Shown: one piece after another, positions 1,494 through 60,714 of the stretch
Layout of the letters: each line of letters opens with the position of its first letter
How positions within the stretch are numbered: position 1 is the first letter of the stretch
Source: an uncultured virus (IMG/VR IMGVR_UViG_3300021399_004696)
Lineage: Duplodnaviria > Heunggongvirae > Uroviricota > Caudoviricetes
IMG/VR virus record: IMGVR_UViG_3300021399_004696
Length of the DNA: 64,000 nucleotides
Direction: 5' to 3' (one strand)
Made by a program: the position numbers and the translations under genes
Notes under the pieces: model-generated
Database searches by the model: none
Seen by the model: only the letters and a program-made list of their open reading frames with translations
Told to the model about the DNA's origin: nothing

Positions 1494-2231
1494 ATGCACA
1501 ATTTTAAGAAAGTTATCGGAATGTCGGTTTTAGCAAGTATTTTGCTTATGGGCTGCAGTGCAACCGAACCTACAGCTTCATTGGCGCCAACAGACTCTTC
1601 TGCTGGGGTAGAAGGGACAGCAATCGAGACAAGCGCAGTAGCAGAGACTACAGGGGTAGAGAACGTATCTGACTTGTCAGGTTATACCTTAGATGAAGGG
1701 TTTATGCCGTTCAGCTCAATTACTATTAACGGGACTGAGTACGCGTTCCCTGCAGCTTACAGCACGCTGGCAGAAGTTTTTCCTCTTAACGCCGAAATTA
1801 TGGGTGAATTTGCTCCTAACGGGTTGTACCCCGGAATGGAAGTAGCGTCTTATGTAACGTCTGATGACGGAGCAACACCGATCTATCCCGGTATTACGAT
1901 CTCTGTCGGAAATTATTATCAGGATATGTCCGGCGGCGACACTATCGCTATAGAGGATGGTCTGGTAAGGCATATTATCATTAATACGTGGGGAGACGAG
2001 GGTACCGATTTCGAGATCATCATTCCAGGCGGCGGAAGCTTGGGCATGTCAGTTGATGAGATCGTAGAGCTTTACGGCGAGCCTTCTGAGGATAATATCC
2101 ACGATTACGAAGAGGGCGGTTGTGTATATTGTTATCCCGTATATTCCGAAGCTGACGAGAATCGTGCGATTTTTACTACTTTTACGTTCTTGAACGATCA
2201 GGTCGTAGGCATTGATCTTGAGTGGGTTTAA
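1494..2231 (+). CDS. lipoprotein, paralog of 5360..6064
   Basis: Lipobox LLMGC; shares PGGGxLGMS..EIVxLYGE and VVGIDLEW with 5360..6064. Confidence 0.75.
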   Translation: MHNFKKVIGMSVLASILLMGCSATEPTASLAPTDSSAGVEGTAIETSAVAETTGVENVSDLSGYTLDEGFMPFSSITINGTEYAFPAAYSTLAEVFPLNAEIMGEFAPNGLYPGMEVASYVTSDDGATPIYPGITISVGNYYQDMSGGDTIAIEDGLVRHIIINTWGDEGTDFEIIIPGGGSLGMSVDEIVELYGEPSEDNIHDYEEGGCVYCYPVYSEADENRAIFTTFTFLNDQVVGIDLEWV

Positions 2232-3465
2232 CATTCAGATACCGACCACTGTTCGAAGTGCTATGACGGCGTTAAAGAAGCAGGGGTATCAGGTATACGT
2301 GGTAGGTGGTGCAGTCAGGGATTGCGTTTTAGGTAAAGAGCCCCATGACTGGGACCTTGCTACTAATGCTGAGCCCGAACTTGTTAAAGAATGTTTTTCT
2401 AAAACCATTGACACAGGGTTAAAGCATGGTACGGTTACAGCGGTTATTGACGAATCACTTATTGAGATCACTACCTTCAGGACTGAAGGTAAATATTCAG
2501 ACGGCAGACATCCTGATTATGTTCGTTTTGTCGGAGATATTAAAGACGATCTGTTCAGGAGAGATTTTACTATCAACGCAATGGCTATTGATTATCAAGG
2601 GCGAATTGTCGACCCGTACGGAGGTCTGACCGACATTGAAGCAAAAAGGATTCGTTGTGTAGGCAATCCTCACGATCGATTTAGGGAAGATGCGCTTCGT
2701 ATGTTGAGAGCGCTAAGATTTGAGTCGACTTTGGGCTTTTCTCTTGACGATTCGGTAAAGGCAGCGATCAAACAGGATTTATCGCTTCTCAGTGCTACCG
2801 TATCTAAGGAAAGAGTCAGGGAAGAGCTTTGTAAGATGATCAAGGCTCCTAAGGCTTCGACCGGGTATAAAGATGCTGCCGAGCTTGGCGTGTTAAGCGA
2901 AATACATCCGATACTGGGGCGTTTGAGCAGCAATAGCCCGTGCCTGAAATATTTGGATGAAGCTCCCGAGGATCTTCAGATCCGTTGGGCAATACTTTTA
3001 CAAGAGCTTTGTTTTGCATATTCGGCTAAGGACGTACTGGCCTGCCTGCGTTTTTCATATGAAGATATGCACGGAGTTTGTGAATATATAAAATATTGCG
3101 ATTGTGTTGACATGTCTCTAAAAGAGGCCCGAAGATTTGCAGCTGACCACAACAAAGATTTTCTGCGCGGGCTGGCAGTCACACAAAGAGCTCACGGGCT
3201 TGTAACTACCCCCGGATATTGCAGTCAGGCTGTCGCAAAAGCTTGGGCGGCGATAAAAGACCACACAGCCATTAAGATGAAAGACCTGCTCATTGACGGG
3301 AATGACCTGATACAAATGGGTTATCAGGGCAAAGAAGTAGGGGATATGCTGAAGGATCTGTATGACGATTGTCTTGAAGAGCCTTCACACAATGAAAGAG
3401 AGTATCTGCTTTCTGTCGCAGAGGCGTGCCGTAAAAGGCCGGCAGAGCCTGACAGAACTTTATAA
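2212..3465 (+). CDS. cca: class II tRNA nucleotidyltransferase (CCA-adding enzyme family)
   Basis: VGGAVRD, DWDLAT, RRDFTINAM, DPYGG, EDALRMLRALRF motifs; start uncertain; ends in DRTL. Confidence 0.9.
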   Translation: MILSGFNIQIPTTVRSAMTALKKQGYQVYVVGGAVRDCVLGKEPHDWDLATNAEPELVKECFSKTIDTGLKHGTVTAVIDESLIEITTFRTEGKYSDGRHPDYVRFVGDIKDDLFRRDFTINAMAIDYQGRIVDPYGGLTDIEAKRIRCVGNPHDRFREDALRMLRALRFESTLGFSLDDSVKAAIKQDLSLLSATVSKERVREELCKMIKAPKASTGYKDAAELGVLSEIHPILGRLSSNSPCLKYLDEAPEDLQIRWAILLQELCFAYSAKDVLACLRFSYEDMHGVCEYIKYCDCVDMSLKEARRFAADHNKDFLRGLAVTQRAHGLVTTPGYCSQAVAKAWAAIKDHTAIKMKDLLIDGNDLIQMGYQGKEVGDMLKDLYDDCLEEPSHNEREYLLSVAEACRKRPAEPDRTL

Positions 3466-3574
3466 GATCGCAATCAAGCGACCTTTTTACCATGATCTCG
3501 TGTACCATGTGTACAAGGAGTTTTCGAAGACGTTCGGAGTAATCCGGGCGTCTTTTGTTGTTTTGTTTACTATT

Positions 3575-4812: not shown

Positions 4813-4889
4813 CGCGGAGAGGTGCTAATGGTGGCATTCCGGGCTCATAACCCGCGAGGTTGCAGGTTCGAATCCTGCCTCCGCAACCA
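4813..4889 (+). tRNA. initiator tRNA-fMet(CAT)
   Basis: C1:A72 mismatch, GGG/CCC anticodon stem with CTCATAA loop, GGTTCGAATCC, CCA. Confidence 0.9.
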
Positions 4890-5156: not shown

Positions 5157-5363
5157 ATGAGTATAGATTGGCGAAATGTCAAGTTGTCAAGCGCGGATTA
5201 TGGCAGGCTTCGTTCATCCTTGGGGAAGCCAGATGAATCGGCGCTTCAAATAAGAGATAAAGTGATGGCTGAATTTGATGCTAACGTTACGACTGTAAGC
5301 AGGGAAGACGGAAGTATTGAATTAACTGTTACAGATGATTATATAGGAGGTTTTAGTAAGTGA
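5157..5363 (+). CDS. hypothetical protein, possibly leaderless
   Basis: ATG 6 nt after the -10 box; stop overlaps the next start. Confidence 0.55.
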   Translation: MSIDWRNVKLSSADYGRLRSSLGKPDESALQIRDKVMAEFDANVTTVSREDGSIELTVTDDYIGGFSK

Positions 5364-6064
5364 AAAAGGAAATTGCGTGTTTGCTGGCTTTCAGTGTTAT
5401 TTTCGGTATCGCAGCTTGCAGTAAGGATACGGAAGAGACGACAGGAGCGCCCGAGATCGTTACCGGCTATGAGGCAATCGAGGAAAGTGAAACAACGGCT
5501 ACGGAGTTAGAATCTTTGCCGACTTCTCCCTATTTAGATCTGATGGACAGTGAACAGCTTACCTATAACGGGGAACTTTACAGTATCCCCGCACCTTATC
5601 AGGCACTTCAGGATCTGCTTCCTTTAAGTGATGCGGATGCAGCAAGTTTTTTAACTTCAGAATTGAATGTAAATGAAGAATATATGATAACAGTTTTGTC
5701 TGATCACGATCCTGAAGAGTATCCGATGGTCATGTTTACTGTAGGCAACTATACTGCCGGTACACTTGACGAAGGGCCTGTTGCTTTTATGGATGCACCT
5801 GTAAGGCATTTGGTTATAGAGCAGGGCGGTGTTGAAGCAACGGATTTTGATTTTCAGGCGCCCGGTGGCGGAGCTCTCGGCATGAGTTCTGACGAGATAG
5901 TCATGCTTTACGGTGAAGTTGACGGGGAAAATTATGTAGAGTTTGAAAACGGCGGATATCAGTATACGTATTGTACGTATTCAACAGATGGAATCCACGC
6001 CGTTTATAAGACATTCAGTTTTTATAACGACGTAGTAGTCGGGATCGATCTGGAGTGGTGCTAA
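5360..6064 (+). CDS. lipoprotein, paralog of 1494..2231
   Basis: Lipobox IAAC; shared C-terminal domain ending VVGIDLEWC. Confidence 0.75.
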   Translation: MKKEIACLLAFSVIFGIAACSKDTEETTGAPEIVTGYEAIEESETTATELESLPTSPYLDLMDSEQLTYNGELYSIPAPYQALQDLLPLSDADAASFLTSELNVNEEYMITVLSDHDPEEYPMVMFTVGNYTAGTLDEGPVAFMDAPVRHLVIEQGGVEATDFDFQAPGGGALGMSSDEIVMLYGEVDGENYVEFENGGYQYTYCTYSTDGIHAVYKTFSFYNDVVVGIDLEWC

Positions 6065-16572: not shown

Positions 16573-16589
16573 GGAGAGTTTTGGTAGTT

Positions 16590-16949
16590 ATGGAAGAAAT
16601 GTCTGATATCAGGATAGTCGTTAATGAAGAGTTTAAAACGTTTCGGCCCAATTCCGAGACGGAATATGGTGAGCCTCAGATCTGGATCTATATGTCTGAC
16701 GGCACTTCGGTCGAAGTCTGTTATGAGCAGTACGGGCTTGAGGCTTCTGACTTTTTCTTTTCTGTAAGAAGACACTGTTCTGACGAGGATTTTGACAGCG
16801 ATAAATATCGGGGCACGATGGGTATTATGGAGCACTATACATACAATACCCGTGACGATCTCGAACGCGGACTCGGTATATTTTTGCAGACCCTGAGCGG
16901 TAAAGGCGTTGCGATCAGTGAAGAACTCGGGAAAGAAGGGGGTTTATAA
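16590..16949 (+). CDS. acidic orphan, C-terminus EGGL
   Basis: AAGGAG SD. Confidence 0.7.
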   Translation: MEEMSDIRIVVNEEFKTFRPNSETEYGEPQIWIYMSDGTSVEVCYEQYGLEASDFFFSVRRHCSDEDFDSDKYRGTMGIMEHYTYNTRDDLERGLGIFLQTLSGKGVAISEELGKEGGL

Positions 16950-16957
16950 AAGGTATT

Positions 16958-17737
16958 ATGGCAACAAATTACAGCTATGACTGGAATAAGATCCCTATAG
17001 AGATAAGTAATTACTATCAGGGCAATCTGAATTTTTATGATATTGACGGTGAGCATAACCCCAAGGAGTATATGGATGTTATGATCAAACTTGACTCTGC
17101 ATATAAGTGGGGTGAAGGGTGGACGGAGCCCGGGCAGCGCGAGAAGTTTCGTAAAACAATGTATGACATTTTCCGCAATATGGGTTGGTTTATCAAGGAG
17201 AGCAATATTTCCGGCGGGTGCCCTACGGCGTATAAAATCGGGACCGGAGCAAATCTGTATCTTCATCCGATGGAACTTACGGGGCTTATACCTAAGACGG
17301 AGCTTGCTAACGTATTAAAGACGCTGAAAGAGAACGAGAGCAGTGTTTATAAGATCCGCAGCGTTATGTTGAGAAGGGAGTTTTTTGATCTTTCCGAAAA
17401 GGCTTATGTCAAGTATCTGGTAGAATCCGGTGACGAGATCAAGAAGGCCATCTGCGAGGCGTGGGAAGGCAATAAGAAGGCATCTTTTGCTGATATTATA
17501 AGAGACGCAGTACAGATGATCGCCATTCCCAGAGTAGGAGATCCCGATGACTGTTCAACGAGCGTAGCACCGTATGAGGGGCTTACATACGGTTATATTC
17601 AGGCTCAGGCACTTCTTATGATCAATCAGGGCGAGATAAAGCTTGCGAACGATAAGGATGCGGATTTTGCGTATCAGAACAGTTTTTTGGCCCGGATCGA
17701 GTCAGTCAACCCTGTATTTTTAGACAGGGGGCTGTAA
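16958..17737 (+). CDS. orphan, C-terminus DRGL
   Basis: 259-aa ORF in an operon. Confidence 0.75.
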   Translation: MATNYSYDWNKIPIEISNYYQGNLNFYDIDGEHNPKEYMDVMIKLDSAYKWGEGWTEPGQREKFRKTMYDIFRNMGWFIKESNISGGCPTAYKIGTGANLYLHPMELTGLIPKTELANVLKTLKENESSVYKIRSVMLRREFFDLSEKAYVKYLVESGDEIKKAICEAWEGNKKASFADIIRDAVQMIAIPRVGDPDDCSTSVAPYEGLTYGYIQAQALLMINQGEIKLANDKDADFAYQNSFLARIESVNPVFLDRGL

Positions 17738-17740
17738 GAG

Positions 17741-17974
17741 ATGGTAACTAAGACAAAGAGCGGAAGAGTTTTCTCTTCGGATGAGGATTGTGATATCACA
17801 ACAGTCGGAGGCTTGATAAAAGTCCTGCGTCAGTTCGGTTCGGACAAGAAGATCCAGTATCGCTGGGTAACCGACCCCGAGATCGTTAATGATATGTCCG
17901 AGGATGTCTTGAAGATCGTGTCTATAGAAGATGCGAGTAAATTGATGGAAAATTCCGGGGCAAACGAAAAATAG
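17741..17974 (+). CDS. hypothetical protein
   Basis: Coupled to the upstream gene. Confidence 0.55.
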   Translation: MVTKTKSGRVFSSDEDCDITTVGGLIKVLRQFGSDKKIQYRWVTDPEIVNDMSEDVLKIVSIEDASKLMENSGANEK

Positions 17975-18184
17975 ATGAATATAATAAAAGAGTAAATGAA
18001 TCTGAATCAAGTTCATTTGCGGTATATAACTTCCTTGATAGAGGCTCCCGGACCATGGTTTTTTGGTGTGTTTTCCATCGGTCTGGGGGTCTTGTCTTGT
18101 TTAGGCGACGGAGTAACACAAAACATAACGGCGCAGGTCTTATAGAGGCTAAGATAAAGAAAAACGAAGGAAGGTCTTATTTAT

Positions 18185-18868
18185 ATGGGAACAAGACATC
18201 TTATAGCAGTTCAGAAAGATAATGAATATAAGTTTGCTCAGTACGGGCATTGGGACGGGTATCCCGAAGGCGTCGGTTCCGATCTTTTGGGCGTTTTGCA
18301 AAAGATCACACCTGAAGAGCTTGCGGAAAAGATTAAAAGATGTAAGCCGTTTAATGCGCCCGAATATTTTGCCGATTACGGTATCCCCATGTCGGCCTTG
18401 GATGAAAACGGGGATATAGACCGCCGGAACCTTTCGGCAGAGGAAGCCGATAAATATACCGACATCTATAACAGGTATAAGCCCTCGGAAGTTGATGCTT
18501 ATGCGATAGATGCCATTACGTCGCTTGCGGAAGCAAAAGACAACGTTCTCGGAGATTTTTACTATCACGATTCTCTTAAGTTTGCCGGTGATTCGCTGTT
18601 TTGTGAGTGGGCTTATGTAATAGATCTGGATAAGAACACTCTGGAAGTATATAAGGGCTTTAATCAGGAGCCTTTGACAGAAGGAGACAGGTTCTATCCG
18701 TTGCAGCAGGAAATGTTCGAAGGTTCACTGCTGCAGAAGGAGCCTGAGACGAATATATATTATCCCGTTAAGCTCGCGGCCACTTTTGACCTTCAGGATC
18801 TTCCTGATCCTGATACTTTTGTTGACCGGATATATAACGGCGGGTTGTCCCAGACTTTGGATATTTAA
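18185..18868 (+). CDS. conserved phage/plasmid hypothetical, C-terminus TLDI
   Basis: MGTRHLIAV...QYGHWDGYP and FCEWAYVIDLD motifs. Confidence 0.8.
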   Translation: MGTRHLIAVQKDNEYKFAQYGHWDGYPEGVGSDLLGVLQKITPEELAEKIKRCKPFNAPEYFADYGIPMSALDENGDIDRRNLSAEEADKYTDIYNRYKPSEVDAYAIDAITSLAEAKDNVLGDFYYHDSLKFAGDSLFCEWAYVIDLDKNTLEVYKGFNQEPLTEGDRFYPLQQEMFEGSLLQKEPETNIYYPVKLAATFDLQDLPDPDTFVDRIYNGGLSQTLDI

Positions 18869-18896
18869 TAATTTAATAAGCAGGAGGGAAGGTATT

Positions 18897-19526
18897 ATGG
18901 AAGGATATAAGAATTACGGCGATAAGAATTTTCTTGAATACGGTATCCTGGTTTCGGAAGAGTCCGCGACTGAATTTCGTATCGTTATGTGCAGACCGTA
19001 CAGTGATGTAGATCCCGAAGACGGCCAGATACATTATCAGTTCAGTGAAAACTATGTTGATATCAACGATTCGTGGATCGATAAAAAAGCGGTCGAGAGT
19101 TTTTGCGGGAGTTATGCTAAAAACGATCCCGTCCATTTTGCGATCGCCTGCATAGAATATTACGGGCCTGAAAATTTCGGTGCCGACGGTAATTCATATC
19201 AGTACGACTGGCGTAACTGCACTAAAGAGGATGTATATGCTCAGATCGGAGCTTACGTTATGGATTCTTATGACGACATCAATTTTGACGGGATTCCTTA
19301 TGATCTGTCAAAGCTTAACGGAAACGAATATATAACGGATATGCCCGAATTTGTCCGAAACCATTTTAAAGAGGCTTTGGTAACGCTCGATCTTTCAGGT
19401 GACCGTATTGACGAGCTTATGGACGGCAGACTTGACGGGCTTAGCGAGATAGGGATAAATTTCCGTGCGTATACAGACAATCTGGGTATCGACGGCAGAC
19501 GTTTTTCTAAAGATCACGAATTGTAA
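18897..19526 (+). CDS. acidic orphan, C-terminus DHEL
   Basis: AGGAGG SD. Confidence 0.75.
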   Translation: MEGYKNYGDKNFLEYGILVSEESATEFRIVMCRPYSDVDPEDGQIHYQFSENYVDINDSWIDKKAVESFCGSYAKNDPVHFAIACIEYYGPENFGADGNSYQYDWRNCTKEDVYAQIGAYVMDSYDDINFDGIPYDLSKLNGNEYITDMPEFVRNHFKEALVTLDLSGDRIDELMDGRLDGLSEIGINFRAYTDNLGIDGRRFSKDHEL

Positions 19527-19567
19527 ACGGTTATTCCTATGCTGTTGAAAAAGGAGTTATTAAGAAA

Positions 19568-20008: not shown

Positions 20009-20090
20009 CGTTTTTGTAACACAAAACTCAGGTTTTAATGCGCAGTACCCTCAATAATATTTATAAGAATATTATCGGGGGTATAAGCAT

Positions 20091-42806: not shown

Positions 42807-43148
42807 ATGAAAAAGATAATCAACAGTATTTTGACCGCAACGCTTATCGCTATGTCAATAGCAGGGTGTACAACAGGGAACTCGTTAAATGACAGAGAAC
42901 CCGAGGTTACAGAAGAGGCGATCGAATCTATTGCCGTTGGGCATGAAGTCATTTCAGAGCATACAGATCCTCACTCTGAAGAGCCGAACCTGGAACCCAG
43001 ACACTCCCGCTTTGAAGAACATTATAATGAGCCTGAAAGCGAAGAGGAAGAAGCAACAGGCAACGACGCCGAAACGGAAGCCGCAGTTTGTGCATATTTT
43101 GCACAGCTCATTAAACCCGAAAAGATGCCTGTGCCCAGAAAACTTTAA
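42807..43148 (+). CDS. putative lipoprotein
   Basis: Lipobox IAGC. Confidence 0.6.
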   Translation: MKKIINSILTATLIAMSIAGCTTGNSLNDREPEVTEEAIESIAVGHEVISEHTDPHSEEPNLEPRHSRFEEHYNEPESEEEEATGNDAETEAAVCAYFAQLIKPEKMPVPRKL

Positions 43149-45088: not shown

Positions 45089-45169
45089 GTTCTTCAAAGT
45101 AAAGTAACACTATCAAGGCGTGTGATGAGCACGCCTTTTATACAATCTGTAAAAAGGAGGATTTGTTAT

Positions 45170-45523
45170 ATGAGTCTGGTTTTACAATTTCGTTGTACGG
45201 TTAATATGGACGTTACCGAACCCTATATCGACAAGCTTATTTTCGAAAAAGATGACGGAACCTTCTTAAAAGTCGGCAGCACATACCACGAGAGTGAAGT
45301 GTTTAATGATATCTGTTATTCCAATTGGAACGGGTTGTATTATCTTAATGGTAAGAACGAATTCTGTGATATTACCTCAGCACAGATGTTTGAAGACGTA
45401 ACTCTTATCGGGGTTGAATATAACGAAAATGCCCCTAATGGATATAATGTTGAAATGTCTCGTTGCGGAGTGTTTTCCGATTACCATCCGATTAACGTCA
45501 GAGTTTTGGATAGGGGGCTTTAA
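45170..45523 (+). CDS. orphan, C-terminus DRGL
   Basis: AAGGAGG SD. Confidence 0.75.
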   Translation: MSLVLQFRCTVNMDVTEPYIDKLIFEKDDGTFLKVGSTYHESEVFNDICYSNWNGLYYLNGKNEFCDITSAQMFEDVTLIGVEYNENAPNGYNVEMSRCGVFSDYHPINVRVLDRGL

Positions 45524-45600
45524 TATGGAAGAATGCGGAAAACTTTTGATGGTTGCACAATACTGAAGAACTTGGAATGAATTAAAGAGTGAGGTTTACT

Positions 45601-46110
45601 ATGAGCAACAAAAAGTACAAGGATATTTTTGATAAAGAGCTTTCAACCTATTTAACTGAAATATTTAAAAGTGCCGATAAATTTATCGCACTGACAGGCA
45701 TGAGAGGGCGCGCGGATGATGAAGATATCGGTGAAGATGAAGACTTAGGTTACGTTCTTCCTAACGTTAAAGAAGTGGATTGTGACCACGATCTTTTAGA
45801 GGATCTCAGTTGTATTCAAGGGGACCTTGGTTATTATTTGCAGGTAGGATATGCAGAACCTGAAGACAGATCGTATGAGACCATATATTCGAGTAATGAA
45901 CTGTTTGAGCTGCTGATGAATGTGTACAATAATGCAGAGAGGTTTATCCAGGCAACCGGATTGGAGTATCGGGTTGATATGGACTTTGAAGGATATGTAG
46001 TCCCCAATGTCGAAGATTGCGACGGGTACCACGACGTATTTGAAGACATCCGATGTGCAAGAGACGATATTAAGTTCTTTTTGAGGATATCTCCTGAACA
46101 CGAAATATAA
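45601..46110 (+). CDS. acidic orphan with internal duplication, C-terminus EHEI
   Basis: Two copies of A.xFI..TG...GYV.PNV...D..HD..ED..C. Confidence 0.75.
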   Translation: MSNKKYKDIFDKELSTYLTEIFKSADKFIALTGMRGRADDEDIGEDEDLGYVLPNVKEVDCDHDLLEDLSCIQGDLGYYLQVGYAEPEDRSYETIYSSNELFELLMNVYNNAERFIQATGLEYRVDMDFEGYVVPNVEDCDGYHDVFEDIRCARDDIKFFLRISPEHEI

Positions 46111-46868: not shown

Positions 46869-47123
46869 ATGGCAAATGAAAATCTTAACAACAAGGCAGT
46901 AGATCATCCTTCGTATTATGGTGGGGATAACAACCCGTATGAAGCCATTAAGGTCATCGAAGCGTGGGATCTTGGCTTTTGTTTGGGGAATACGGTCAAA
47001 TATATTTCCAGAGCAGGGAAGAAGAATCCTGAAAAAGAAATAGAGGATCTGGAAAAGGCAGCTTGGTATTTGAACAGACACATCGAAGGACTTAAGAAAA
47101 ATCGTTCTTCGGATGCTGTTTAA
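46869..47123 (+). CDS. DUF3310-family protein
   Basis: VDHPSYY...FCLGNTVKYISRAGKK...EDLEKAAWYL. Confidence 0.85.
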   Translation: MANENLNNKAVDHPSYYGGDNNPYEAIKVIEAWDLGFCLGNTVKYISRAGKKNPEKEIEDLEKAAWYLNRHIEGLKKNRSSDAV

Positions 47124-47166
47124 AGCACAAATATCCCGCCTCCCCGGAAAAGAAAGGAAAGGAATA

Positions 47167-47736
47167 ATGCAGAAGTTTTATATTGCTGATACCCACTTCG
47201 GACATCAGAACATTATCAGATTTGATAACCGTCCTTGGTTTGATACTTCATCCATGGAAGACGACATGATCGCTTTATGGAACGAGAGGGTCACCAAAGC
47301 CGACGAAGTATATATCCTCGGCGATTTCTGTTGGGGAACCGCAGAGGACTGGAAGAGGATCTTACCAAAGCTTCGAGGTAAGAAGCACCTTATCAGGGGC
47401 AACCACGACCTGAGACAGATCCCGCAGGATGTAAGGTGTTTCTTTGTCAGCGTCTCTGATTACAAGGAGACGCGCGACGGGGATCTTTCCATTTGTATGA
47501 GTCACTATCCGATGCTGTCGTATCGACACGACCGCAACCCTGATATTCATATGTTTTACGGCCATGTCCACAATACTGCCGAATACAAGGCTATCAGGGA
47601 AGCAGCTAAGACCTTCAAGGATACTTGTATCGCTTCGGGGTTTGACTCTTATCAGGGCAATCTTCATAACTGCTGGTGCGGTTTTTACGGCTGGGCGCCG
47701 GCGACTGCAGAAGAGATCATCAACAGCGACCATTAA
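47167..47736 (+). CDS. calcineurin-like metallophosphoesterase
   Basis: ADTHFGH, LGDF, RGNHD, SHYP, YGHVH. Confidence 0.88.
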   Translation: MQKFYIADTHFGHQNIIRFDNRPWFDTSSMEDDMIALWNERVTKADEVYILGDFCWGTAEDWKRILPKLRGKKHLIRGNHDLRQIPQDVRCFFVSVSDYKETRDGDLSICMSHYPMLSYRHDRNPDIHMFYGHVHNTAEYKAIREAAKTFKDTCIASGFDSYQGNLHNCWCGFYGWAPATAEEIINSDH

Positions 47737-47839
47737 GCTTTAGCCCGAACTGAAATTTTGCCGAAAGCACCTTGCTTTTTTCCGACATCTCTTTCTCTTT
47801 TTCTCGTAACTTGTCGGAGGAAACAAGGTGTTTTTGTGT

Positions 47840-47883
47840 GTAACACATGGCTCCGGGTGCTTTCTTATTATTTATTTAATAAT
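47840..47883 (+). promoter_or_regulatory. GTAACAC box plus CCGGG-N20 promoter of the RecD2 gene
   Basis: GTAACAC 47840, CCGGG 47853, AATAAT 47878. Confidence 0.75.
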
Positions 47884-47889
47884 AAAGCC

Positions 47890-50427
47890 ATGGATAACAG
47901 CTTAAAGACAATCAAGGGGAGGATCACCCGCATATTTAACGGCTATCCGAAAGCGGACGGTTTGTACGGCTTCGGTCTTGAAGTTGACCCCCAATACGCT
48001 AATCTGGTTGAATACAATCAGTACGGAAACATTACTTGTTTCGGGCGTACTACTCTGGATCTTGATACCGGAGATCAGGTAGAGCTTACCGAGGTCTCAA
48101 AATCCAAAAGCAAGACTTATCAGGGTACCTACAACTTCGGGCATCTTGACATGGTCTTAGACGAACGTCCGCAACTTATCAAATTCCTGCAAAATTTTCA
48201 CGGGATCGGACCCGTAGCTGCTACCCGTATCGTTAACGGTTTCGGTATGGATGCCAGAGAATATATCAAACAAAATCCTGAACTGGTCAAAAATACCTGC
48301 CGTCTGACAGACAAGCAGATCCAGGCTTTGCACGGCGGTCTTATCGCCAACGACGAAAAGGCAGTCCTGTCCCAGTTCCTTTACGAGCTCAGTTCTAAGA
48401 TGATCGACAATATCCTTGAGCATTTTATAGGGAAGAATAAGGATTATCAGACGGTTAAAGGCCTTATGAAAGCCATTGAAGATAATCCGTACATCTTATG
48501 TAAGGTGCCCAGGATATCTTTCCTGAAAGCAGACCCCGTTGCTTTACGACTGGGCATTGACCGATATTCAGAGCTTCGTCTTTCGGAGGCTTTGCTGTAT
48601 TACATGAAACAGAACGGGGTTAAAAACCTGTATATCAACCTGTCAAATAAGTATGAATATACCAGACTGATAAATGATATGAACAAGCTTCTGGGCATTA
48701 CTTTTAATTCAGGAGCTGAATGCTCGCACTTTTACGCGAGCTTTATCAAGAGCTGTCATTCTCCCGATCCCGAGGACGACGCTTATTTTACGCTGGATTA
48801 TTACAAGAATCCGCAGACAGGAAATTCGGAAGCGCATCTTTATTTGAAAGATATCTTTATTGCTCAACAGCACTGTCTTCATTTTTTACAGAATAAGGCA
48901 GTCATCAGCAACCGTAATCCGCAGCCCTTCGATTTTGAAGATTTCAAGTATACTATCCAGGATTATCAGGACGCCAAAAATCTGACTTTGACAGACGAGC
49001 AGATCAAAGCGGCTCAGAATGCTCTGGCTTCAGAAGTGAGTATCATTACGGGGGGCCCTGGCCGTGGTAAGACCTGCATGATCGATTTTATTGCCTCAAC
49101 GTGGGAAAATTACAGCAGTTTCAACCGGGTTATATTGTTGGCGCCTACCGGAAAAGCCATGAATAAACTGAAAACGGTAACGCATAACGACTACAATACT
49201 ATGACGGTCGACCGTTTTATCTGTCAGCTTAAATTTGCAGATCAGGGAAGCCGTTCTGATGTTGACGACAGGCATACTTTTATTATCATAGATGAGAGTT
49301 CTATGATCGACATATGCAAAGCATCGGAGCTGTTTAAGATAGCCCCTCTTTGCCGTTTCTGTTTTGTCGGGGACGCTGATCAGTTGCCTCCGATAAGCCC
49401 GGGGGACTTTTTTAAAGATCTCATTGAATCTGATAAATTCCCTGTCAGCCGATTAACTACACCTCTTCGAAATCACGGGTTGATCTTGCAGAATGCTGAA
49501 AAGATAAACGCAAAGAACACGCAACTGGAGTTTGATAACAAGGAAATGTCTTTCATCAAGACAACAGGCGATTCCCAAGAAGTAACGGAGCAGATAATCG
49601 ACAAGTATCTTCAAGAAGTCGCAGAAATCGGAGATCCTTCTTCTGTAGCGTTATTGTGTCCGGTAAAGAGCGGGGAGACCGGAGTTGCAGACCTTAACAT
49701 AATCGCACAAGACCGTTTGTGCCCCAAATCAGGATCGGGGGTTCCTGTTAAGATTCATCCGTTTGGTGAGTCCGCGATCGTAGAAAAAGGCTTTGAGCTT
49801 GATAGTTGGTATGGCTGCAAAGGCAAGGCGACCAAGTTCCGCATAGGGGATCTTGTTATGAATACTGAAAACGACTACGAAGCACAGCTTTACAGTCAAA
49901 AAGATCCCGTTGATGAATATGTTTATAAGAAAGCCGAAGATCAGGGTATCTTTAACGGAGAGTGGGGTTTTATCACTTCTTATATCCCTACTTTCCAAAA
50001 TCCTGAAAACGATCAGACTATAAGTCTTGTCGGTATAAAAATGTACAACAACATGACGGTCTTTGTACCTTTACAGGAGCTGTCTGAAAGATTCGATCTC
50101 GGGTATGCTATAACGGTACACAAAGCACAGGGCTCGGAATATAAGTCTGTTATCTATGTATCGCCTCATCGTATGGCGGCCTGGGCGAATACATCATCAG
50201 ACATCGGGGGTTTTGTAACTAAAAACCTTATCTATACCGGCGTTACCAGGGCACAGGAGAAAGTGCTGATCGTAGGGTCTGAAAAATCGGTAGCGGCTTG
50301 TATCATGCACGACTATCCAAAATATAACAGTACTTTCCTTTCAAGGCTTCAAAATGATGTTGAAAAAACAATTCCGATTGAAGAAAAATACGATTTCGAA
50401 GAACTGAATTACAGGGATGATCTGTAA
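47890..50427 (+). CDS. recD2: RecD2/TraA-like SF1B helicase, C-terminus RDDL
   Basis: HhH GIGPV.A, GGPGRGKT, APTGKA, DESSM, GDADQLPP, YAITVHKAQGSEY, YTGVTRA. Confidence 0.9.
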   Translation: MDNSLKTIKGRITRIFNGYPKADGLYGFGLEVDPQYANLVEYNQYGNITCFGRTTLDLDTGDQVELTEVSKSKSKTYQGTYNFGHLDMVLDERPQLIKFLQNFHGIGPVAATRIVNGFGMDAREYIKQNPELVKNTCRLTDKQIQALHGGLIANDEKAVLSQFLYELSSKMIDNILEHFIGKNKDYQTVKGLMKAIEDNPYILCKVPRISFLKADPVALRLGIDRYSELRLSEALLYYMKQNGVKNLYINLSNKYEYTRLINDMNKLLGITFNSGAECSHFYASFIKSCHSPDPEDDAYFTLDYYKNPQTGNSEAHLYLKDIFIAQQHCLHFLQNKAVISNRNPQPFDFEDFKYTIQDYQDAKNLTLTDEQIKAAQNALASEVSIITGGPGRGKTCMIDFIASTWENYSSFNRVILLAPTGKAMNKLKTVTHNDYNTMTVDRFICQLKFADQGSRSDVDDRHTFIIIDESSMIDICKASELFKIAPLCRFCFVGDADQLPPISPGDFFKDLIESDKFPVSRLTTPLRNHGLILQNAEKINAKNTQLEFDNKEMSFIKTTGDSQEVTEQIIDKYLQEVAEIGDPSSVALLCPVKSGETGVADLNIIAQDRLCPKSGSGVPVKIHPFGESAIVEKGFELDSWYGCKGKATKFRIGDLVMNTENDYEAQLYSQKDPVDEYVYKKAEDQGIFNGEWGFITSYIPTFQNPENDQTISLVGIKMYNNMTVFVPLQELSERFDLGYAITVHKAQGSEYKSVIYVSPHRMAAWANTSSDIGGFVTKNLIYTGVTRAQEKVLIVGSEKSVAACIMHDYPKYNSTFLSRLQNDVEKTIPIEEKYDFEELNYRDDL

Positions 50428-54018: not shown

Positions 54019-54603
54019 ATGCAGTATTTTATCTCTGATACACATCTGGGTGATTTCGGTATTGCCAAATATCAAAGTGATTTTTCATCCCTGAAAGAGC
54101 GTGATGAAATGATCATTTCTAATTGGAATTCGATCGTTAAGCGTCAAGATGATGTATATATAATCGGAGATCTGATATCTCATCAGTACGGAGATTTTTA
54201 TCATATCCTTCGCAGGCTTGAAGGTCAGAAACATCTTATAATCGGCAATCATGACCATGATCTCATATTAAACAGAAAGGCCCGCACTTATTTCGTCTCT
54301 ATTGATGACATTAAATTCATAAGAGATGAGGAAACGGGGCAGGGGCTTGTTCTGTGTCATTATCCCATGGCCGAATGGAACGGATATCAGCGCGGAGTAG
54401 ATCACATCTACGGTCACATTCACGAAAACTCCAAGGATGTGTTCAGATTCATGTTCGAAAAAGGTATGAATGAACCGGATAAGGGCCGAGCTTATAATGC
54501 TTGCGTTATGATCAATAATAATAAGCCTTGTACTCTGGAAGAGATAAAAGCAAATAATCTCATTTACTATAACAGCCTCAATGTAACACCAAAAGAGCTG
54601 TAA
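54019..54603 (+). CDS. calcineurin-like metallophosphoesterase, C-terminus PKEL
   Basis: SDTHLG, IGDL, IGNHD, CHYP, YGHIH. Confidence 0.88.
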   Translation: MQYFISDTHLGDFGIAKYQSDFSSLKERDEMIISNWNSIVKRQDDVYIIGDLISHQYGDFYHILRRLEGQKHLIIGNHDHDLILNRKARTYFVSIDDIKFIRDEETGQGLVLCHYPMAEWNGYQRGVDHIYGHIHENSKDVFRFMFEKGMNEPDKGRAYNACVMINNNKPCTLEEIKANNLIYYNSLNVTPKEL

Positions 54604-54656: not shown

Positions 54657-54932
54657 ATGACAAACGAAGAAATTGATATGCTCCTGGCAGGGCAGGGAAG
54701 TATCGAATGCTATGGAGATACTTATATCTGTTTAGGCCGTGTAGGGGATATGGATTTTGATTCATTCAAAAAGGATATTAAAGAAAAAAGCGGAATCCGT
54801 GTTCCCGATCTTGCGGAAGAGATGATCGTGCTGCAATGCGAGGCCGATGACGTTCCTGTTTATTTCAGTGAGCAGGCTTTAAAACAGAAAAGGGACTTCC
54901 GGTTTGTGCCACATATTGAGAAAAGCCTGTGA
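54657..54932 (+). CDS. orphan, C-terminus EKSL
   Basis: GGAGGT SD. Confidence 0.7.
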   Translation: MTNEEIDMLLAGQGSIECYGDTYICLGRVGDMDFDSFKKDIKEKSGIRVPDLAEEMIVLQCEADDVPVYFSEQALKQKRDFRFVPHIEKSL

Positions 54933-55633: not shown

Positions 55634-56578
55634 ATGAAGGTCATCAAGAATAATAAGAAGGGCTTTACTCTTATAGAGATAATGCTTGTTATTGCTATAA
55701 TTGTTATCCTGTCCGCGGGCGTTCTGGTTGGTGTTACGGACCGTATCCGTGCAGCCAGAGAAAAGCAGGCGGCCCTGCAGGCACACGAGAACTATTGGGA
55801 TATCGCCTATAGGCAGGTTGATGAAATCTTGAGAAGGCCGACAGACACTCCCGGTGGCGGAGGCGGTGCCGGCGGTGGTGGCGGTGCCGGTGGCGGAGGC
55901 GGTATCGGCGGCGGTGGCGGTACTAGTTCGGAGGATGACGATTACTGGTATCAGCAATATCTTAATCTTCTGAATGACCCTAATATTGTCATCGACTATG
56001 TAAGTGACGATTATCGTACGGTTCTCTGGCATTACAGATCGTCAGAGCCTACAAGCGCTCCTACATCAGCACCTACAAGCGCTCCTACATCAACACCTAC
56101 AAGTGCCCCTACATCAGCTCCTACGACTGCACCTACAAGCGCTCCGACATCAGCACCTACAACTGCTCCTACGAGTGCTCCCACAAGCGCTCCTACATCA
56201 GCTCCTACGACCGCACCTACGGTGGCTCCTACGGCGGTTCCTACGACAGCACCTTCGGACGATGATACACCCGTAACATATGACGGTGAGTTTGTTACAA
56301 GCGGTGGTACGACAGGTGTAAGAGGCATTACTCCGAATTCTGACGGTACCGTTACTCTTGAACTGCAGTATCAGTACAACACAGGTACTGTAAAGATCCG
56401 CCAGAATGATGACGGCACATACAGCATGTGGATCAATCCCGGTGATACAAACTTTATCGGTGCCGTTATCGGATATAACGCAGACAATCAGTGGTGCGCC
56501 ACTAACAGGTGGGTAAATCTCTCACCTACGGCCGTATCTCAGATGGAAGATGCATACGGCGTTTCATTTAGCGGGTAA
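55634..56578 (+). CDS. prepilin-type (type IV pilin N-terminal) protein with Gly-rich and Pro/Thr/Ser linker
   Basis: NNKKG|FTLIEIMLVIAIIVILS class III signal peptide. Confidence 0.85.
   Translation: MKVIKNNKKGFTLIEIMLVIAIIVILSAGVLVGVTDRIRAAREKQAALQAHENYWDIAYRQVDEILRRPTDTPGGGGGAGGGGGAGGGGGIGGGGGTSSEDDDYWYQQYLNLLNDPNIVIDYVSDDYRTVLWHYRSSEPTSAPTSAPTSAPTSTPTSAPTSAPTTAPTSAPTSAPTTAPTSAPTSAPTSAPTTAPTVAPTAVPTTAPSDDDTPVTYDGEFVTSGGTTGVRGITPNSDGTVTLELQYQYNTGTVKIRQNDDGTYSMWINPGDTNFIGAVIGYNADNQWCATNRWVNLSPTAVSQMEDAYGVSFSG
56048..56251 (+). repeat. 12-bp tandem repeat encoding 17 PT[S/T]A-like units
   Basis: Degenerate units such as CCTACAAGCGCT and CCTACATCAGCA. Confidence 0.9.
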
Positions 56579-56734: not shown

Positions 56735-57190
56735 ATGAGCAACGTTACACCGATCGAACAGTATCTGGATGATCAGGCAGACCAGTCTAAAAATCCGTAT
56801 AATATCCAGCATTTGATAGAATTCTTCGCTTTTAAACAAATGCTCGATGACTTGGCCCGCAAGACCGGGGGCGGGTTTAAAGACATATCCAAGGTGTATA
56901 AGTATGATAAAGATTCTTTGTTTGTAGCATATGATCCCGAAATATATAAAACCGTTGTTGCCGGCGTTAATCATGATCGTGTTGTTTACCATAGGATCGT
57001 GAAAAGTGCCGTGAAACAGGAAGATGGAGCACACGCAATAGTCGAGTTATTTCCGAATTATGAAGATTTCATGACTTTATGCGTAATTCCTGATGACAAG
57101 GGTCAGGAGCCCTGGATCGAAGTCACACTTAAATCGGAACAGAGAAATGTAAGAATAGTGATCGAAAATGCAGTGTGGAGGGTAGTGTAA
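56735..57190 (+). CDS. hypothetical protein
   Basis: AAGGAGG SD. Confidence 0.7.
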   Translation: MSNVTPIEQYLDDQADQSKNPYNIQHLIEFFAFKQMLDDLARKTGGGFKDISKVYKYDKDSLFVAYDPEIYKTVVAGVNHDRVVYHRIVKSAVKQEDGAHAIVELFPNYEDFMTLCVIPDDKGQEPWIEVTLKSEQRNVRIVIENAVWRVV

Positions 57191-57501
57191 TGGAAAACGT
57201 TTATTACGTCACCGAAGATAAACAGGGCGGATATTTCGGCATGGGACGTTTATATACCGCTAAAGAGTGGCTAGACCAAACAGTTGAATGGCATGACCAC
57301 GATGATTACTGGGATTACGATACAGAAAGACAGGAGTTTATCGATAAATGGACAAAGGTTATCGAAGAGGGTAATGAACAGGATTTTATCGATTATATTG
57401 CAGGTTGCTGGGAGCTTGAGTTTGTGAAAGGAGATCCTGAAGTCGGTATTCCCGCAGAATACGACCCGGATGAATTGCAGTATCCCGATGAAAGTTTATA
57501 A
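57190..57501 (+). CDS. acidic orphan, C-terminus DESL
   Basis: GGAGG SD; TAATG overlap. Confidence 0.7.
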   Translation: MENVYYVTEDKQGGYFGMGRLYTAKEWLDQTVEWHDHDDYWDYDTERQEFIDKWTKVIEEGNEQDFIDYIAGCWELEFVKGDPEVGIPAEYDPDELQYPDESL

Positions 57502-60040
57502 AAATTGGTTAAGCATACTGGTTTGCGCCTGTTTGACAGCAAACATTTTTGCCGTAAACGTTTATGGTGACGTTGATGATACCACGGAATCTTCAGGGGA
57601 GGGTCAGGAGACAACGCAGGAACTTGTTCAGGCAGAGCTGCCAGACGATCCCGAAGATCCTGATAATACAGCCGAGATGTCGGAAGATCTGTCGGATTCT
57701 TCGGAAGATCAAGACAATTCCGATGTTTCCGAATCGTCAAGCGATGTTGAAAATAATGAAGAGGGCAATCCTGTCGAATCACCATCAGACGATAACACAG
57801 AGGGTTCAGATGAGCTTATGCCGGATAATGCTGTTTCGGAGGATCTGCCTGAGCCCGAGATTAATTCGGATGAGATCGAGTCGGAAGTAACCGAGTCAGG
57901 CGCGACAGCATCAGTCCAGCCTTTGGATTTTGTTGATGCACCTTTAACTCTTTCCAGAAACGCAACTCTGATTGAACTTTCATATGTCAACGGGAAATAT
58001 GTATATAACAACGAAGAGCACAACAGCTTCCCAACGTCAGGCTCTTATATCTTGATGTCAGATATGCCCATTTCCGCTCAGGTTGCCGTAAACGGGGAAC
58101 TGAGTATTGATCTGGGCGGATTCACTATTACAGACACTATTACGACCAGCAAGCAGCCGTTTTCGGTTCAACAGAATGATATTCTTAACATAAGCGGTAC
58201 GGGGACGATTCAAGGTAACTCTAATGTTTCTCATTGTTGCATTTTTATAAACAACGGCGGCGTAGTTAACATGTCCGGAGGCACTATTGACGGATTCCGA
58301 GCTACCGGAGTCGGCGGTGGTGTCAGCGTTAATCATAAAGATGACGTATTTACAATGTCGGGCAACGCCACCATTCAAAACTGCGGTGTAACGAACAACG
58401 GCCACGGCGGAGGTGTTGGTGTACGTCGCGGTACTTTTTATATGACCGACAATGCATGCGTTACCGGTTGCTATATATTAGGAACACCAGCTGAAAAGAA
58501 CGGGAACGGGGCAGGAATTTCTATAGGTGAAAGCGCCACAATGTATCTGTCAGGGAATGCAACGGTTACCAATAATACCGGAGTAGGATACCATGGTGCC
58601 GGCATCGACTTATGGAGCAACAGCCATCTTTATCTTTCAGGATCGCCTACGGTTCTGAATAACACTAACGGCAGGAATGAACCATGTAATCTCTATGTCG
58701 GCCCGACTCTTACCATAAACGGGCCTCTTACCGGAGCGCCTAATTCTATCGGCATCTCCATTCAGACTTATCCGACTTTTACTTCAGGGCTGTTAGCTAA
58801 CAACCCGGGTTCCACTATAGATGATCTTCTTGCTATATTTGATGCAGACCGTTATCACTGGACTTCTATTCCGAGAGCTTCTGAATATGAGATCATAGAT
58901 GACAACGGGACGGAAGCTAAAGTAGCGCCTACCATTACCGTTTATTACATGACTAACTATGGCAACAATACGGTTTGGAAGACTCAGGAAATGGCCCCCG
59001 GCGGTCAAGCGGTCAGTCCGGGCAACCCTACGCGTACCGGCTATAATTTCGGAGGCTGGTATCGCACCCCGCAAACAACAGGCAGTGCTTGGAGTTTTAG
59101 CAATAACAATGTTCCGCATGATGCTGATCTGTATCTATACGCAAAGTGGACCTTAAAGACGTATAACATGACGGTAACCGTTACAGGAGATTCGGACCAA
59201 GTAGTTGCATCGTCTTCCGCTACGGTAAATTACGGTTCTGACTGGACGTTCTCGGCTACGGCTAATCAAGGCTATAAGATCGTTTCTGTAAAGATAGACA
59301 ATGTAACTCAGACTTTAACGGATGATCCGACAACCGATTATACGCATCTTTTCAGTGCCATTGACAGAGCACACTCGGTTACGATCGACATTGCGCCGAT
59401 AACTTACACAGTTCAGGCAACGGTAGTCAACAATGCTGATGCGGCGCACTGGACCTTCTCAAATTATACTGCACCCGTTCAAGTGCAACACGGGTCTGGT
59501 CTGAACATATCGGGCAGTGTAGATGCTCAATATTATCTCGTTTCGGCGACGCTTAACAATCAGCCATTAACGCTTTCCGATTACGCTGTTTCCGATACTG
59601 ACTATTCCTTTGATCTGACAAACATTACTGAAGATACAACATTGGAAATCGAGGTAGGGCAGATGGTACCCATTACCATTACTGCTTCGGGGGAGCCGAC
59701 AGCTCTTTCTGTATCTTCGACACCTTCGCATTATTCAGTACCGAACAGTTCAGAGCAGATAACGATTCAGGTCGAACAGGGATATATTATCGAGGCCATT
59801 TATATCGACAACGTACTTCTGCCCACTCCTTTAGGTTTAGATGTCTATACCTGGGAACAGAATGTAGGGGGCAGCGGGCACTCTATTGAAGTCCGGATCA
59901 CACAGGCCCGAGTTATCATTCCGGAGGCCACAGGTTTTGCTCAAAACAAAGCTCCGATCATTGCGTTGTTAGCAGTTGTCGGAACGCTTTTCGGGCTTGC
60001 ATTAAAGACAAAAAGGCGCGGTAACACTACAGAACAGTAA
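57488..60040 (+). CDS. cell-surface protein (signal peptide, beta-helix-like GGG repeats, InlB B-repeat-like domain, C-terminal anchor)
   Basis: PTRTGYNFGGWY...LYAKW; IPEATG followed by a TM segment and KTKRR. Confidence 0.8.
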   Translation: MKVYKNWLSILVCACLTANIFAVNVYGDVDDTTESSGEGQETTQELVQAELPDDPEDPDNTAEMSEDLSDSSEDQDNSDVSESSSDVENNEEGNPVESPSDDNTEGSDELMPDNAVSEDLPEPEINSDEIESEVTESGATASVQPLDFVDAPLTLSRNATLIELSYVNGKYVYNNEEHNSFPTSGSYILMSDMPISAQVAVNGELSIDLGGFTITDTITTSKQPFSVQQNDILNISGTGTIQGNSNVSHCCIFINNGGVVNMSGGTIDGFRATGVGGGVSVNHKDDVFTMSGNATIQNCGVTNNGHGGGVGVRRGTFYMTDNACVTGCYILGTPAEKNGNGAGISIGESATMYLSGNATVTNNTGVGYHGAGIDLWSNSHLYLSGSPTVLNNTNGRNEPCNLYVGPTLTINGPLTGAPNSIGISIQTYPTFTSGLLANNPGSTIDDLLAIFDADRYHWTSIPRASEYEIIDDNGTEAKVAPTITVYYMTNYGNNTVWKTQEMAPGGQAVSPGNPTRTGYNFGGWYRTPQTTGSAWSFSNNNVPHDADLYLYAKWTLKTYNMTVTVTGDSDQVVASSSATVNYGSDWTFSATANQGYKIVSVKIDNVTQTLTDDPTTDYTHLFSAIDRAHSVTIDIAPITYTVQATVVNNADAAHWTFSNYTAPVQVQHGSGLNISGSVDAQYYLVSATLNNQPLTLSDYAVSDTDYSFDLTNITEDTTLEIEVGQMVPITITASGEPTALSVSSTPSHYSVPNSSEQITIQVEQGYIIEAIYIDNVLLPTPLGLDVYTWEQNVGGSGHSIEVRITQARVIIPEATGFAQNKAPIIALLAVVGTLFGLALKTKRRGNTTEQ

Positions 60041-60093
60041 TGGGTTTGGTGTAAGGGTATACTAAGCATAAATATAGTCGGAGGTACATTAGT

Positions 60094-60714
60094 ATGGGAC
60101 AATTTTCATGGCTTGATTGTGTAACGGGCGAACAGATATTTGATGATTACGAGAGGGATTCGTATGTTTTAGTTCCCAGAGAATTCCGTGATACATACGG
60201 GGTGGCTATTACCGAGGATTGTTATGATGGTTATGGTCGTTTCGGAGGTTATGACATATATGATCTCGTTGCAGACTGGAACAAAAAATATATCGATCCG
60301 GATAATTTTACCAGTCGTTGCCTTAATGTCGGATCGGAAGATAATTACGGCGGTTTATGGCCTGACGAAAAGGAAGATCTTAAAAAACAGGGGATGAGTG
60401 CCAAGGAAATAAACGCTTTGGATAAGGCTAAAAAGCATGAACATTGGCAAAATGCCGTTAACAGAGCTAATAAATCTATAGCCAAGATCAGAGATTTTTG
60501 TGAGGGTAGATCCGATGAGTATATGAAGACGATGTACGGCGCGGAATATAAGCGCAACATCGGCATTACTTTAGCTTGTTATGACGAAGATAACGAGAAG
60601 CTCCACTATCCGATAAAAATTACCTATCAGCAGGGCTATACGTATGAACAGTGTGATCCTTCTCCTTCAGACCCTGACCAGGGCTGGAATCTTGGCCACA
60701 ATAGAGGAATGTGA
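60094..60714 (+). CDS. conserved hypothetical, C-terminus NRGM
   Basis: MGQFSW...YDGYGRFGG.D.Y...DPDQG. Confidence 0.75.
   Translation: MGQFSWLDCVTGEQIFDDYERDSYVLVPREFRDTYGVAITEDCYDGYGRFGGYDIYDLVADWNKKYIDPDNFTSRCLNVGSEDNYGGLWPDEKEDLKKQGMSAKEINALDKAKKHEHWQNAVNRANKSIAKIRDFCEGRSDEYMKTMYGAEYKRNIGITLACYDEDNEKLHYPIKITYQQGYTYEQCDPSPSDPDQGWNLGHNRGM

Follow-up and report, generated by a model that had tools for sequence, protein, structure and literature searches.

About a third of the soluble, otherwise unrelated proteins encoded on a 64,000-nucleotide stretch of an uncultured virus record (IMG/VR IMGVR_UViG_3300021399_004696, assigned to Caudoviricetes), called the window here in its full length, were found to share a short C-terminal tail that usually ends in leucine. 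The enrichment of these tails was real and well beyond chance. The tails are interpreted here, with a probability of about 0.5, as a short linear motif under selection as a peptide, that is, as a C-terminal tag read by a common partner and serving as a putative docking or address tag.

Enrichment and inventory of the tails

Tails were scored with the strict motif x-[RHPK]-[GEDST]-[LIM]-stop in a hand-curated set of 86 open reading frames (ORFs) on the plus strand of the window. Leucine was the last residue in 29 of these 86 ORFs, against 6.7 expected from composition (p=5.6e-12), and 21/86 displayed the strict motif, against 0.89 expected from its internal rate (193/18,680 positions). Isoleucine was the last residue in six ORFs (5.9 expected), and valine and phenylalanine together in five. 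Counting the last residue as -1, further enriched residues were G and E at -2, R at -3, E and D at -4, and P at -5. The bias towards terminal leucine opposes the general bacterial trend, since in 1,582 bacterial genomes leucine, like other hydrophobic residues, is under-represented at the C-terminal end (PMC7246954).

Control loci were treated with one automatic ORF caller, which by itself retrieved 32 leucine ends and 22 motifs among 91 ORFs of the window. Background was provided by 80 viral loci that had been gathered in a sigma-factor scan and proved unrelated in content; they displayed 131 leucine ends and 19 motifs among 1719 ORFs. A second set of 80 viral loci came from a scan with an alignment of acid-tailed kinase-HD homologs (A1); those with at least eight ORFs gave 171 leucine ends and 17 motifs among 2155 ORFs, and no excess of leucine ends was seen in any of the 80. 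The 53 metagenome loci, which included the relative L163 described below, yielded 104 leucine ends and 10 motifs among 881 ORFs. Over all 213 control loci, leucine ends amounted to 7.6-11.8 % and the motif to ~1 %. Spurious ORFs of the window DNA itself, either out of frame or antisense, ended in leucine in 64/457 cases (14 %) and in the motif in 6/457 (1.3 %). One of the viral control contigs, unrelated to the window, may display another terminal-residue bias: at IMGVR_UViG_3300021387_000036 (locus L092, 63422-83862), 13 of 36 called ORFs ended in glutamate (p=5e-7 against the composition of the locus).

Genes were classed by the nearest start, preceded by a Shine-Dalgarno (SD) sequence, of an ORF of at least 50 amino acids. 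Such a start lay at most 13 nt from the stop or overlapped it in class A, lay 14-30 nt after the stop in class B, and was absent within 30 nt in class C. The 21 strict tails listed in the initial annotation were all found (21/21), as were its eight looser ones (EGGL, TLDI, GVGL, DDRL, ELDI, YGPL, RDDL and DESL; 8/8). In the following inventory, all tails lie on the plus strand and their coordinates include the stop codon.

The CCA-adding enzyme (2212-3465) carried the first tail, DRTL (3451-3465), and no start lay within 30 nt of it. Carriers were densest at 16581-26163, where they made up 15 of 18 consecutive ORFs. This block opened with the loose tail EGGL (16935-16949) of ORF 16581-16949, a class A gene in which the SD of the next gene overlaps the tail, and with DRGL (17723-17737) of ORF 16958-17737, also class A and serving as the SD of the next gene. 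It continued with loose TLDI (18854-18868; ORF 18185-18868), DHEL (19512-19526; ORF 18786-19526, class C and thus uncoupled), loose GVGL (19994-20008; ORF 19568-20008, class C), loose DDRL (20505-20519; ORF 20091-20519) and ERGL (20858-20872; ORF 20516-20872, class A with SD overlap). DRGL was encountered again at 21672-21686 in the ORFan 20874-21686, whose sole detected homolog was 96 % identical and kept the tail. The remainder of the block displayed EPEL (22170-22184; ORF 21702-22184, class B), DHEL (22797-22811; ORF 22191-22811, class C), GRDL (23344-23358; ORF 22873-23358, class B), EPDL (24381-24395; ORF 24048-24395), NRGL (24811-24825; ORF 24403-24825), SREL (25592-25606; ORF 25049-25606) and loose ELDI (26149-26163; ORF 25633-26163, class C).

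Further downstream, tails were found on the DEDD/RNase_T exonuclease 31444-32283 (GKEI, 32269-32283; class A with SD overlap), on ORF 32287-32754 (GPSL, 32740-32754; class C), on ORF 34226-34942 (loose YGPL, 34928-34942), on ORF 35105-35593 (EPEL, 35579-35593), on the Pnkp-like kinase-HD 37163-38221 (ERDL, 38207-38221) and on ORF 38651-39319 (DKGL, 39305-39319; class C). ORF 42807-43148 ended in the loose tail PRKL (43134-43148), which adds to those of the initial annotation. ORFs 45122-45523 and 45589-46110, both of class C, ended in DRGL (45509-45523) and EHEI (46096-46110), respectively. The RecD2-like helicase 47758-50427 carried loose RDDL (50413-50427; class C), the metallophosphoesterase 54019-54603 carried PKEL (54589-54603), and ORF 54657-54932 carried EKSL (54918-54932; class C). 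The last tails were loose DESL (57487-57501) of ORF 57175-57501 and NRGM (60700-60714) of ORF 60094-60714, a class A gene. None of the 36 small plus-strand ORFs (20-59 amino acids) located between the listed genes displayed the motif. At 45509-45523, the sequence GAT AGG GGG CTT TAA, in which an SD-like AGGGGG precedes CTT and the stop, was considered as a prfB-like +1 frameshift site; this was rejected, as terminal leucine codons vary among the tails and no long +1 ORF follows.

The initial annotation had also named genes devoid of the tail. ThyX, both sigma factors, TopB and the PARP-domain protein indeed lacked the motif; the methyltransferase ends in KKVL, which is a leucine end and yet does not fit the motif.

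Peptide-level signal, conserved folds and relatives

That the tag acts on the peptide, as proposed initially, was borne out by the codons. In the 37 genes ending in L, I or M, the information contained in the last four codons resided at codon positions 1 and 2 (for instance 0.70 bits at nucleotide -12, 0.34 at -11 and 0.54 at -6), wobble positions held 0.06-0.14 bits, and nothing was conserved 3' of the stop. The 29 terminal leucines were encoded by CTG (nine), TTA (eight), CTT (seven), TTG (three), CTA (one) and CTC (one); TTR codons accordingly made up 11/29 against 33 % internally (p=0.69), in line with internal usage. Proline, a feature not used in defining carriers, was found at -5 to -8 in 14/31 carriers and in 5/55 other ORFs (p=2.4e-4). 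The fuller motif thus approximates P-x(0-3)-[DE]-[RKHP]-[GDE]-L.

Carriers proved unrelated to each other: an all-against-all BLASTP at 1e-3 returned three paralog pairs, none of which joined two carriers. Strict carriers had a median isoelectric point (pI) of 4.6 and loose carriers one of 4.3, that of other ORFs being 5.3, and none of the eight proteins with a pI above 9 carried the tag. Segments resembling transmembrane helices were present in 3/31 carriers and in 13/55 others.

In two enzyme families, kinase-HD and phosphoesterase, the tail is a lineage-specific extension past the conserved fold. Most of the best kinase-HD homologs (89/120) end in a conserved ..AH, to which the protein of the window adds the nine residues RLGGPERDL; a 97 % identical relative also extends past ..AH, and both fit [RK]LGGPERDL. 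In an AlphaFold2 model of the kinase-HD (pLDDT 89.7), the last helix stops at residue 344, and the pLDDT drops to less than 50 for residues 350-352. The end TPKEL of phosphoesterase 54019-54603 was shared by a 99 % identical relative only, and the motif was present in none of the 119 other (non-identical) homologs; when aligned with it, its paralog in the window (47113-47736) is seen to end 13 residues before it and to be devoid of an extension. The initial statement that enzyme tails lie beyond conserved domains therefore held, from homologs and model, for these two. For the CCA-adding enzyme, the exonuclease and RecD2, the position of the tail is judged solely from the ends of Pfam envelopes (residues 403/417, 217/279 and 839/889, respectively). 

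ORF 16958-17737 belongs to an unnamed family with 263 remote homologs, for whose members Pfam provided no family; among the 150 homologs listed, four fit the motif, including a 97 % identical relative. Many members of this family (P0250-P0263, P0298, P0314, P0338 and P0381; 204-450 amino acids) display Glu-rich ends whatever their length, such as EEREEI, ERDEI, EEMEL and EIEDIER, where the member of the window displays DRGL. Own C-terminal extensions were also observed in about nine of the 120 best kinase-HD homologs, encoded on other contigs (P0011, P0013, P0015, P0020, P0024, P0041, P0044, P0045 and P0058). They are acidic and mostly close with a hydrophobic residue (EKDV, EKEL, DKEV, DREI, DNSI), and it seems from these sequences that kinase-HD acquired tail tags in other lineages too.

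Lineage specificity was apparent in that neither the viral and metagenome control loci nor the listed homologs of the phosphoesterase and of ORF 16958-17737 were enriched in tails. Close relatives (96-99 % identical) keep them. Among copies in sequencing runs, one tail change was encountered among the 40 variants listed of ~1,094, and it was synonymous (16940 G>A). 

A more distant relative, L163, covers 20.5 kb of a metagenome contig that is 234,848 bp long. Its identity to the window reaches 49 % for TopB, 52 % for both the PARP-domain protein and the phosphoesterase, and 37 % for both a sigma factor and ORF 24403-24825. Seven of its 18 plus-strand ORFs end in leucine (p=4e-4) and three fit the strict motif. 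Orthologs share the terminal leucine: NRGL of ORF 24403-24825 corresponds to PRSL, and TPKEL of the phosphoesterase to ISTLL, even though the regions just upstream have diverged with indels. TopB, PARP-domain protein and sigma factor lack a tail in the window and in L163 alike. At 16047-20304 of L163, an SNF2-type helicase (phrog_62), which ends in DHTL, comes after TopB, and the opposite strand encodes an integrase and a clamp-loader-like AAA protein.

Other searches were unproductive. Megablast with the topB gene gave no match among phages and plasmids. Scans of viral contigs with ORF 20874-21686, TopB, RecD2 and alignment A4 uncovered no relative, and a metagenome scan with RecD2 gave no match. 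Genome contigs scanned with kinase-HD homolog P0011 yielded one short, unrelated contig, and a viral scan with a helicase of L163 returned high-GC, unrelated phages only.

Possible functions of the tail

If the tails are docking tags, they would consist of a flexible linker, often containing proline or glycine, followed by [DE]-[RKHP]-[GDE/ST]-Leu-COOH and added to some 30 unrelated, soluble and mostly acidic proteins. The free carboxylate and the side chain of the terminal leucine would plug into the peptide-binding pocket of one shared reader, whose gene would lie either in the host or on another part of the element. ORFans of the early block and nucleic-acid repair enzymes would thereby be brought together by the tag at a single machine or site. 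Direct support extends to the tag being real, acting on the peptide, being lineage-specific and being appended to folds; the single reader and the effect of docking are what we infer from it. Among its conceivable roles, recruitment to a shared machine is ranked highest, ahead of loading for transfer to the next cell, with control of turnover in last place.

Several observations weigh against a docking tag. No PDZ, TPR or other known C-terminal-peptide-binding domain was detected with Pfam in the 92 ORFs of the window that were scanned. The motif is degenerate and was defined post hoc, after inspection of the data, a definition of which the plain test on terminal leucine is free. The RNA ligase that adjoins the kinase-HD, its partner enzyme, is devoid of the tag. 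Near relatives are too close for a test of purifying selection: none of 30 amino acid differences fell in the last five residues, with ~0.6 expected. More than half of the L/I/M-ended carriers (16/31) are located in coupling junctions (ten of class A, six of class B), and R-G tails are encoded by AGRGG, which is SD-like. In L163, six of the seven leucine ends directly precede TAA and GGAGG, and TTR codons encode the terminal leucine in 6/7 cases, while they make up 34 % of internal leucine codons (p=0.007). In L163, the DNA sequence of the junctions may contribute to the tails; it does not in the window.

These last points would suit tails without any function, which would be by-products of tight gene packing, either SDs or A/T-rich spacers read in frame or relics left after rearrangement. 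An SD-like 4-mer was indeed present in the last 15 nt of 19/35 genes with a close downstream start, against a background of 19 %, and some R-G tails double as the SD of the next gene (17737, 20872, 60714 and others), as had been noted from the start. EPEL, DHEL, EPDL, PKEL and EHEI, however, are not SD-like. According to the initial annotation, a lack of enrichment outside the SD-overlapping genes would speak against the tag. Class A (27 genes) comprised nine leucine ends and seven strict motifs, and class B (13 genes) six and five; in the 46 class C genes, the enrichment was equally strong, with 14 leucine ends against 3.6 expected (p=6.6e-6) and nine strict motifs against 0.48 expected (p=1e-9), and a coarser version of this comparison agreed. 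SD overlap is thus rejected as the sole cause of the tails. By-products would also not explain the lack of conservation at wobble positions and downstream, the absence of enrichment for Val, Phe and Ile (whose codons have the same T in the middle), the proline accompanying the tail at -5 to -8, or the addition of tails onto conserved folds. A functionless origin is accordingly held to be improbable.

Tails might instead, as chiefly proposed in the initial annotation, be cargo signals that load proteins into a virion or into the channel of a conjugative type IV secretion system (T4SS), so that pre-made counter-defence and repair enzymes arrive in the next host cell with the DNA. Such a payload would agree with the nature of several carriers, namely tRNA and DNA repair-type enzymes (CCA-adding enzyme, kinase-HD, exonuclease, RecD2-like helicase) and the small acidic ORFan block just downstream of TopB, beside the YodL/DUF3846 gene. 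The best plasmid matches of TopB were located on conjugative plasmids in 3324 of 4350 matching records. Precedent exists in Dot/Icm signals, which are C-terminal, acidic and bound by DotM (PMC5802825); a 10-residue peptide is reported there not to be bound, and the tails measure four to nine residues and are devoid of a Glu-rich block. Over the last 20 residues, carriers bear a mean net charge of only -1.3, and the RNA ligase, expected to work with the kinase-HD, would be left behind for want of a tag. Since no VirB4, VirD4, T4SS, relaxase, capsid, portal or terminase match was obtained among the window ORFs (92 against Pfam, 73 against PHROGs), the cargo signal is weakened and appears unlikely. 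A signal for turnover, be it a degron or a protective cap, by which the Leu-tipped tail sets half-life through a protease of host or element and times early proteins, is considered quite unlikely. For Mycoplasma pneumoniae, hydrophobic last residues are reported to lower reporter levels, partly via faster degradation (Leu 0.70x), and acidic residues at -1 or -2 to raise them (PMC7246954). Against such a signal, the effects reported for single terminal residues are small. The clustering of carriers at 16581-26163 would be in keeping with such timing; enzymes needed throughout the cycle of the element are nevertheless tagged as well. No window ORF of the 86 ended in the ssrA-like [LAV]AA, and Asp or Glu occupied -2 in 14/31 carriers, which weakens the degron. 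An acidic residue at this position blocks recognition by ClpX, as in the ssrA-DD control.

The docking tag thus remains the preferred explanation. A more elaborate form of it is rather unlikely: an address code of the element's own (Pro/Gly linker, [DE]-[RKHP]-[GDE]-Leu-COOH), with a single co-evolving receptor, would gather about a third of the soluble proteome. Its purpose could then be the loading of pre-made counter-defence and repair proteins for the next host cell, and related elements would carry shifted codes, x-[STH]-Leu in L163 against [GED]-Leu in the window. If one reader does recognise the tail, a single short peptide would organise one in three soluble proteins of a mobile element that is very large and almost entirely uncharacterised. 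The identity of the reader would at once assign a common fate to some 30 proteins without assigned function and would turn the tail into a portable tag with which proteins could be steered in Gram-positive bacteria of the gut. The interest of the tag lies in this scale; as a short C-terminal addition to folded enzymes, it is readily amenable to peptide and reporter experiments.

Genetic context and known C-terminal codes

The window belongs to a large mobile element whose host is a Gram-positive bacterium of the ruminant gut. Near-identical DNA (95-99 %) was found in contigs of four sequencing runs, representing gut, rumen and sheep-gut metagenomes and one further organism. The host is taken to be Gram-positive because an 856-residue surface protein (57470-60040), which displays a signal peptide and a Listeria-Bacteroides repeat, ends in IPEATG, a hydrophobic stretch and KTKRRG, that is, in a sortase-type anchor. 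The gene of this protein adjoins a prepilin-like gene (55634-56578; G/FTLIE N-terminus). As transfer and virion genes were without match in the window ORFs, the element may be either a phage or a plasmid.

Nine tRNA genes form an array (251-1363 and 4813-4889), and the plus-strand CCA-adding enzyme was assigned by Pfam. Together with the Pnkp-like kinase-HD and the RNA ligase (37163-40510), they provide the window with a kit for the supply and repair of tRNAs, as is typical of very large phages or megaplasmids. A long run of plus-strand genes further encodes a TopB-like topoisomerase, YodL/DUF3846, NrdD, the DEDD exonuclease, a PASTA protein, ThyX, the RecD2-like helicase, the PARP-domain protein, two sigma-70-family factors and the prepilin-like protein. 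An HpaII-type restriction-modification pair and a tyrosine integrase are located on the minus strand. Most other window ORFs had no Pfam or PHROG family (92 ORFs searched against Pfam, 73 against PHROGs). Two paralogous acidic proteins (1485-2231 and 5360-6064; 39 % identical), with hydrophobic N-termini and the common end VGIDLEW[VC], flank the region of the CCA-adding enzyme.

The sequence TTCCGGGYGT occurred in 23 copies in the window, allowing at most one mismatch, against 4.8 expected. Eleven intergenic plus-strand copies (3542, 12917, 22814, 29017, 34220, 39335, 54966, 56664, 61118, 61668 and 63027) lie 6-97 nt 5' of gene starts, with a TAnAAT-like hexamer about 17 nt further on; in a few cases the sequence pairs with an upstream ACACCC as a hairpin. 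It may mark a class of promoters used by the element, perhaps recognised by one of the two sigma factors.

None of the 86 ORFs fitted the patterns for ssrA-like tags, clamp-binding motifs, the SSB tip, T7-like acidic-aromatic tails, peroxisomal targeting signal 1 (PTS1) or K/HDEL. Judged by titles and the openings of abstracts, the literature yielded no account of C-terminal tags used across a whole phage or plasmid. PTS1 ([SAC]-[KRH]-[LM]-COOH) and K/HDEL-type signals ([KRHQSA]-[DENQ]-E-L-COOH) are eukaryotic sorting peptides, each with one receptor, found on unrelated soluble proteins. Like the tails, they are codes of three to four residues that end in leucine at a free C-terminus; the tails are bacterial and display reversed charges, acidic at -4 and basic at -3. 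Clamp-binding motifs (bacterial QL[SD]LF; the ligands gp43, gp33 and gp55 of T4 gp45) likewise place one short end motif, which plugs into the pocket of a hub, on many unrelated proteins. They are hydrophobic, whereas nothing like Q-[LIVM]-x-[LIVM]-x-[LF] was present in the last 12 residues of any of the 86 ORFs, and most carriers are not DNA enzymes. The ssrA/ClpX degron shares with the tails a free carboxylate and a non-polar end, but requires three non-polar last residues (L-A-A) and no acidic residue near the end, at variance with the lack of [LAV]AA ends and the frequent acidic -2 described above. Signals of VirB/D4-type T4SS are net positive, Arg-rich C-termini, while the last 6, 10 and 20 residues of carriers were negative on average. 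The tails thus differ from published T4SS signals and from ssrA-type degrons in charge, length, [LAV]AA ends and the acidic -2.

Two systems come closest in logic. In phage T7, the tail of the helicase-primase gp4 docks on the DNA polymerase gp5, as does that of the SSB gp2.5. T7 tails are long and strongly acidic, end in Phe and are restricted to two carriers, against about 30 in the window, most of them without a known DNA role; five or more D/E among the last 10 residues, combined with a terminal F/W/Y, were found in 0/86 ORFs. The likeness would reside in disordered, acidic tails with an essential hydrophobic last residue, borne by different proteins of one phage and read by a basic patch of a shared partner (PMC12339929). 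The other system is Dot/Icm, a type IVB secretion system. Its C-terminal acidic signals are carried by hundreds of unrelated proteins and bound by the coupling-complex protein DotM; they span ~20-30 residues and include a Glu block, and the hydrophobic residue that closes their consensus matters (PMC5802825). Dot/Icm is Gram-negative and its Glu block is long, while the tails are short, carriers average a net charge of -0.65 over the last 10 residues, and the 92 window ORFs were without T4SS match. Alongside the T7 tails, Dot/Icm signals are nonetheless the closest in logic to the tails described here, as one C-terminal code is shared across unrelated proteins.

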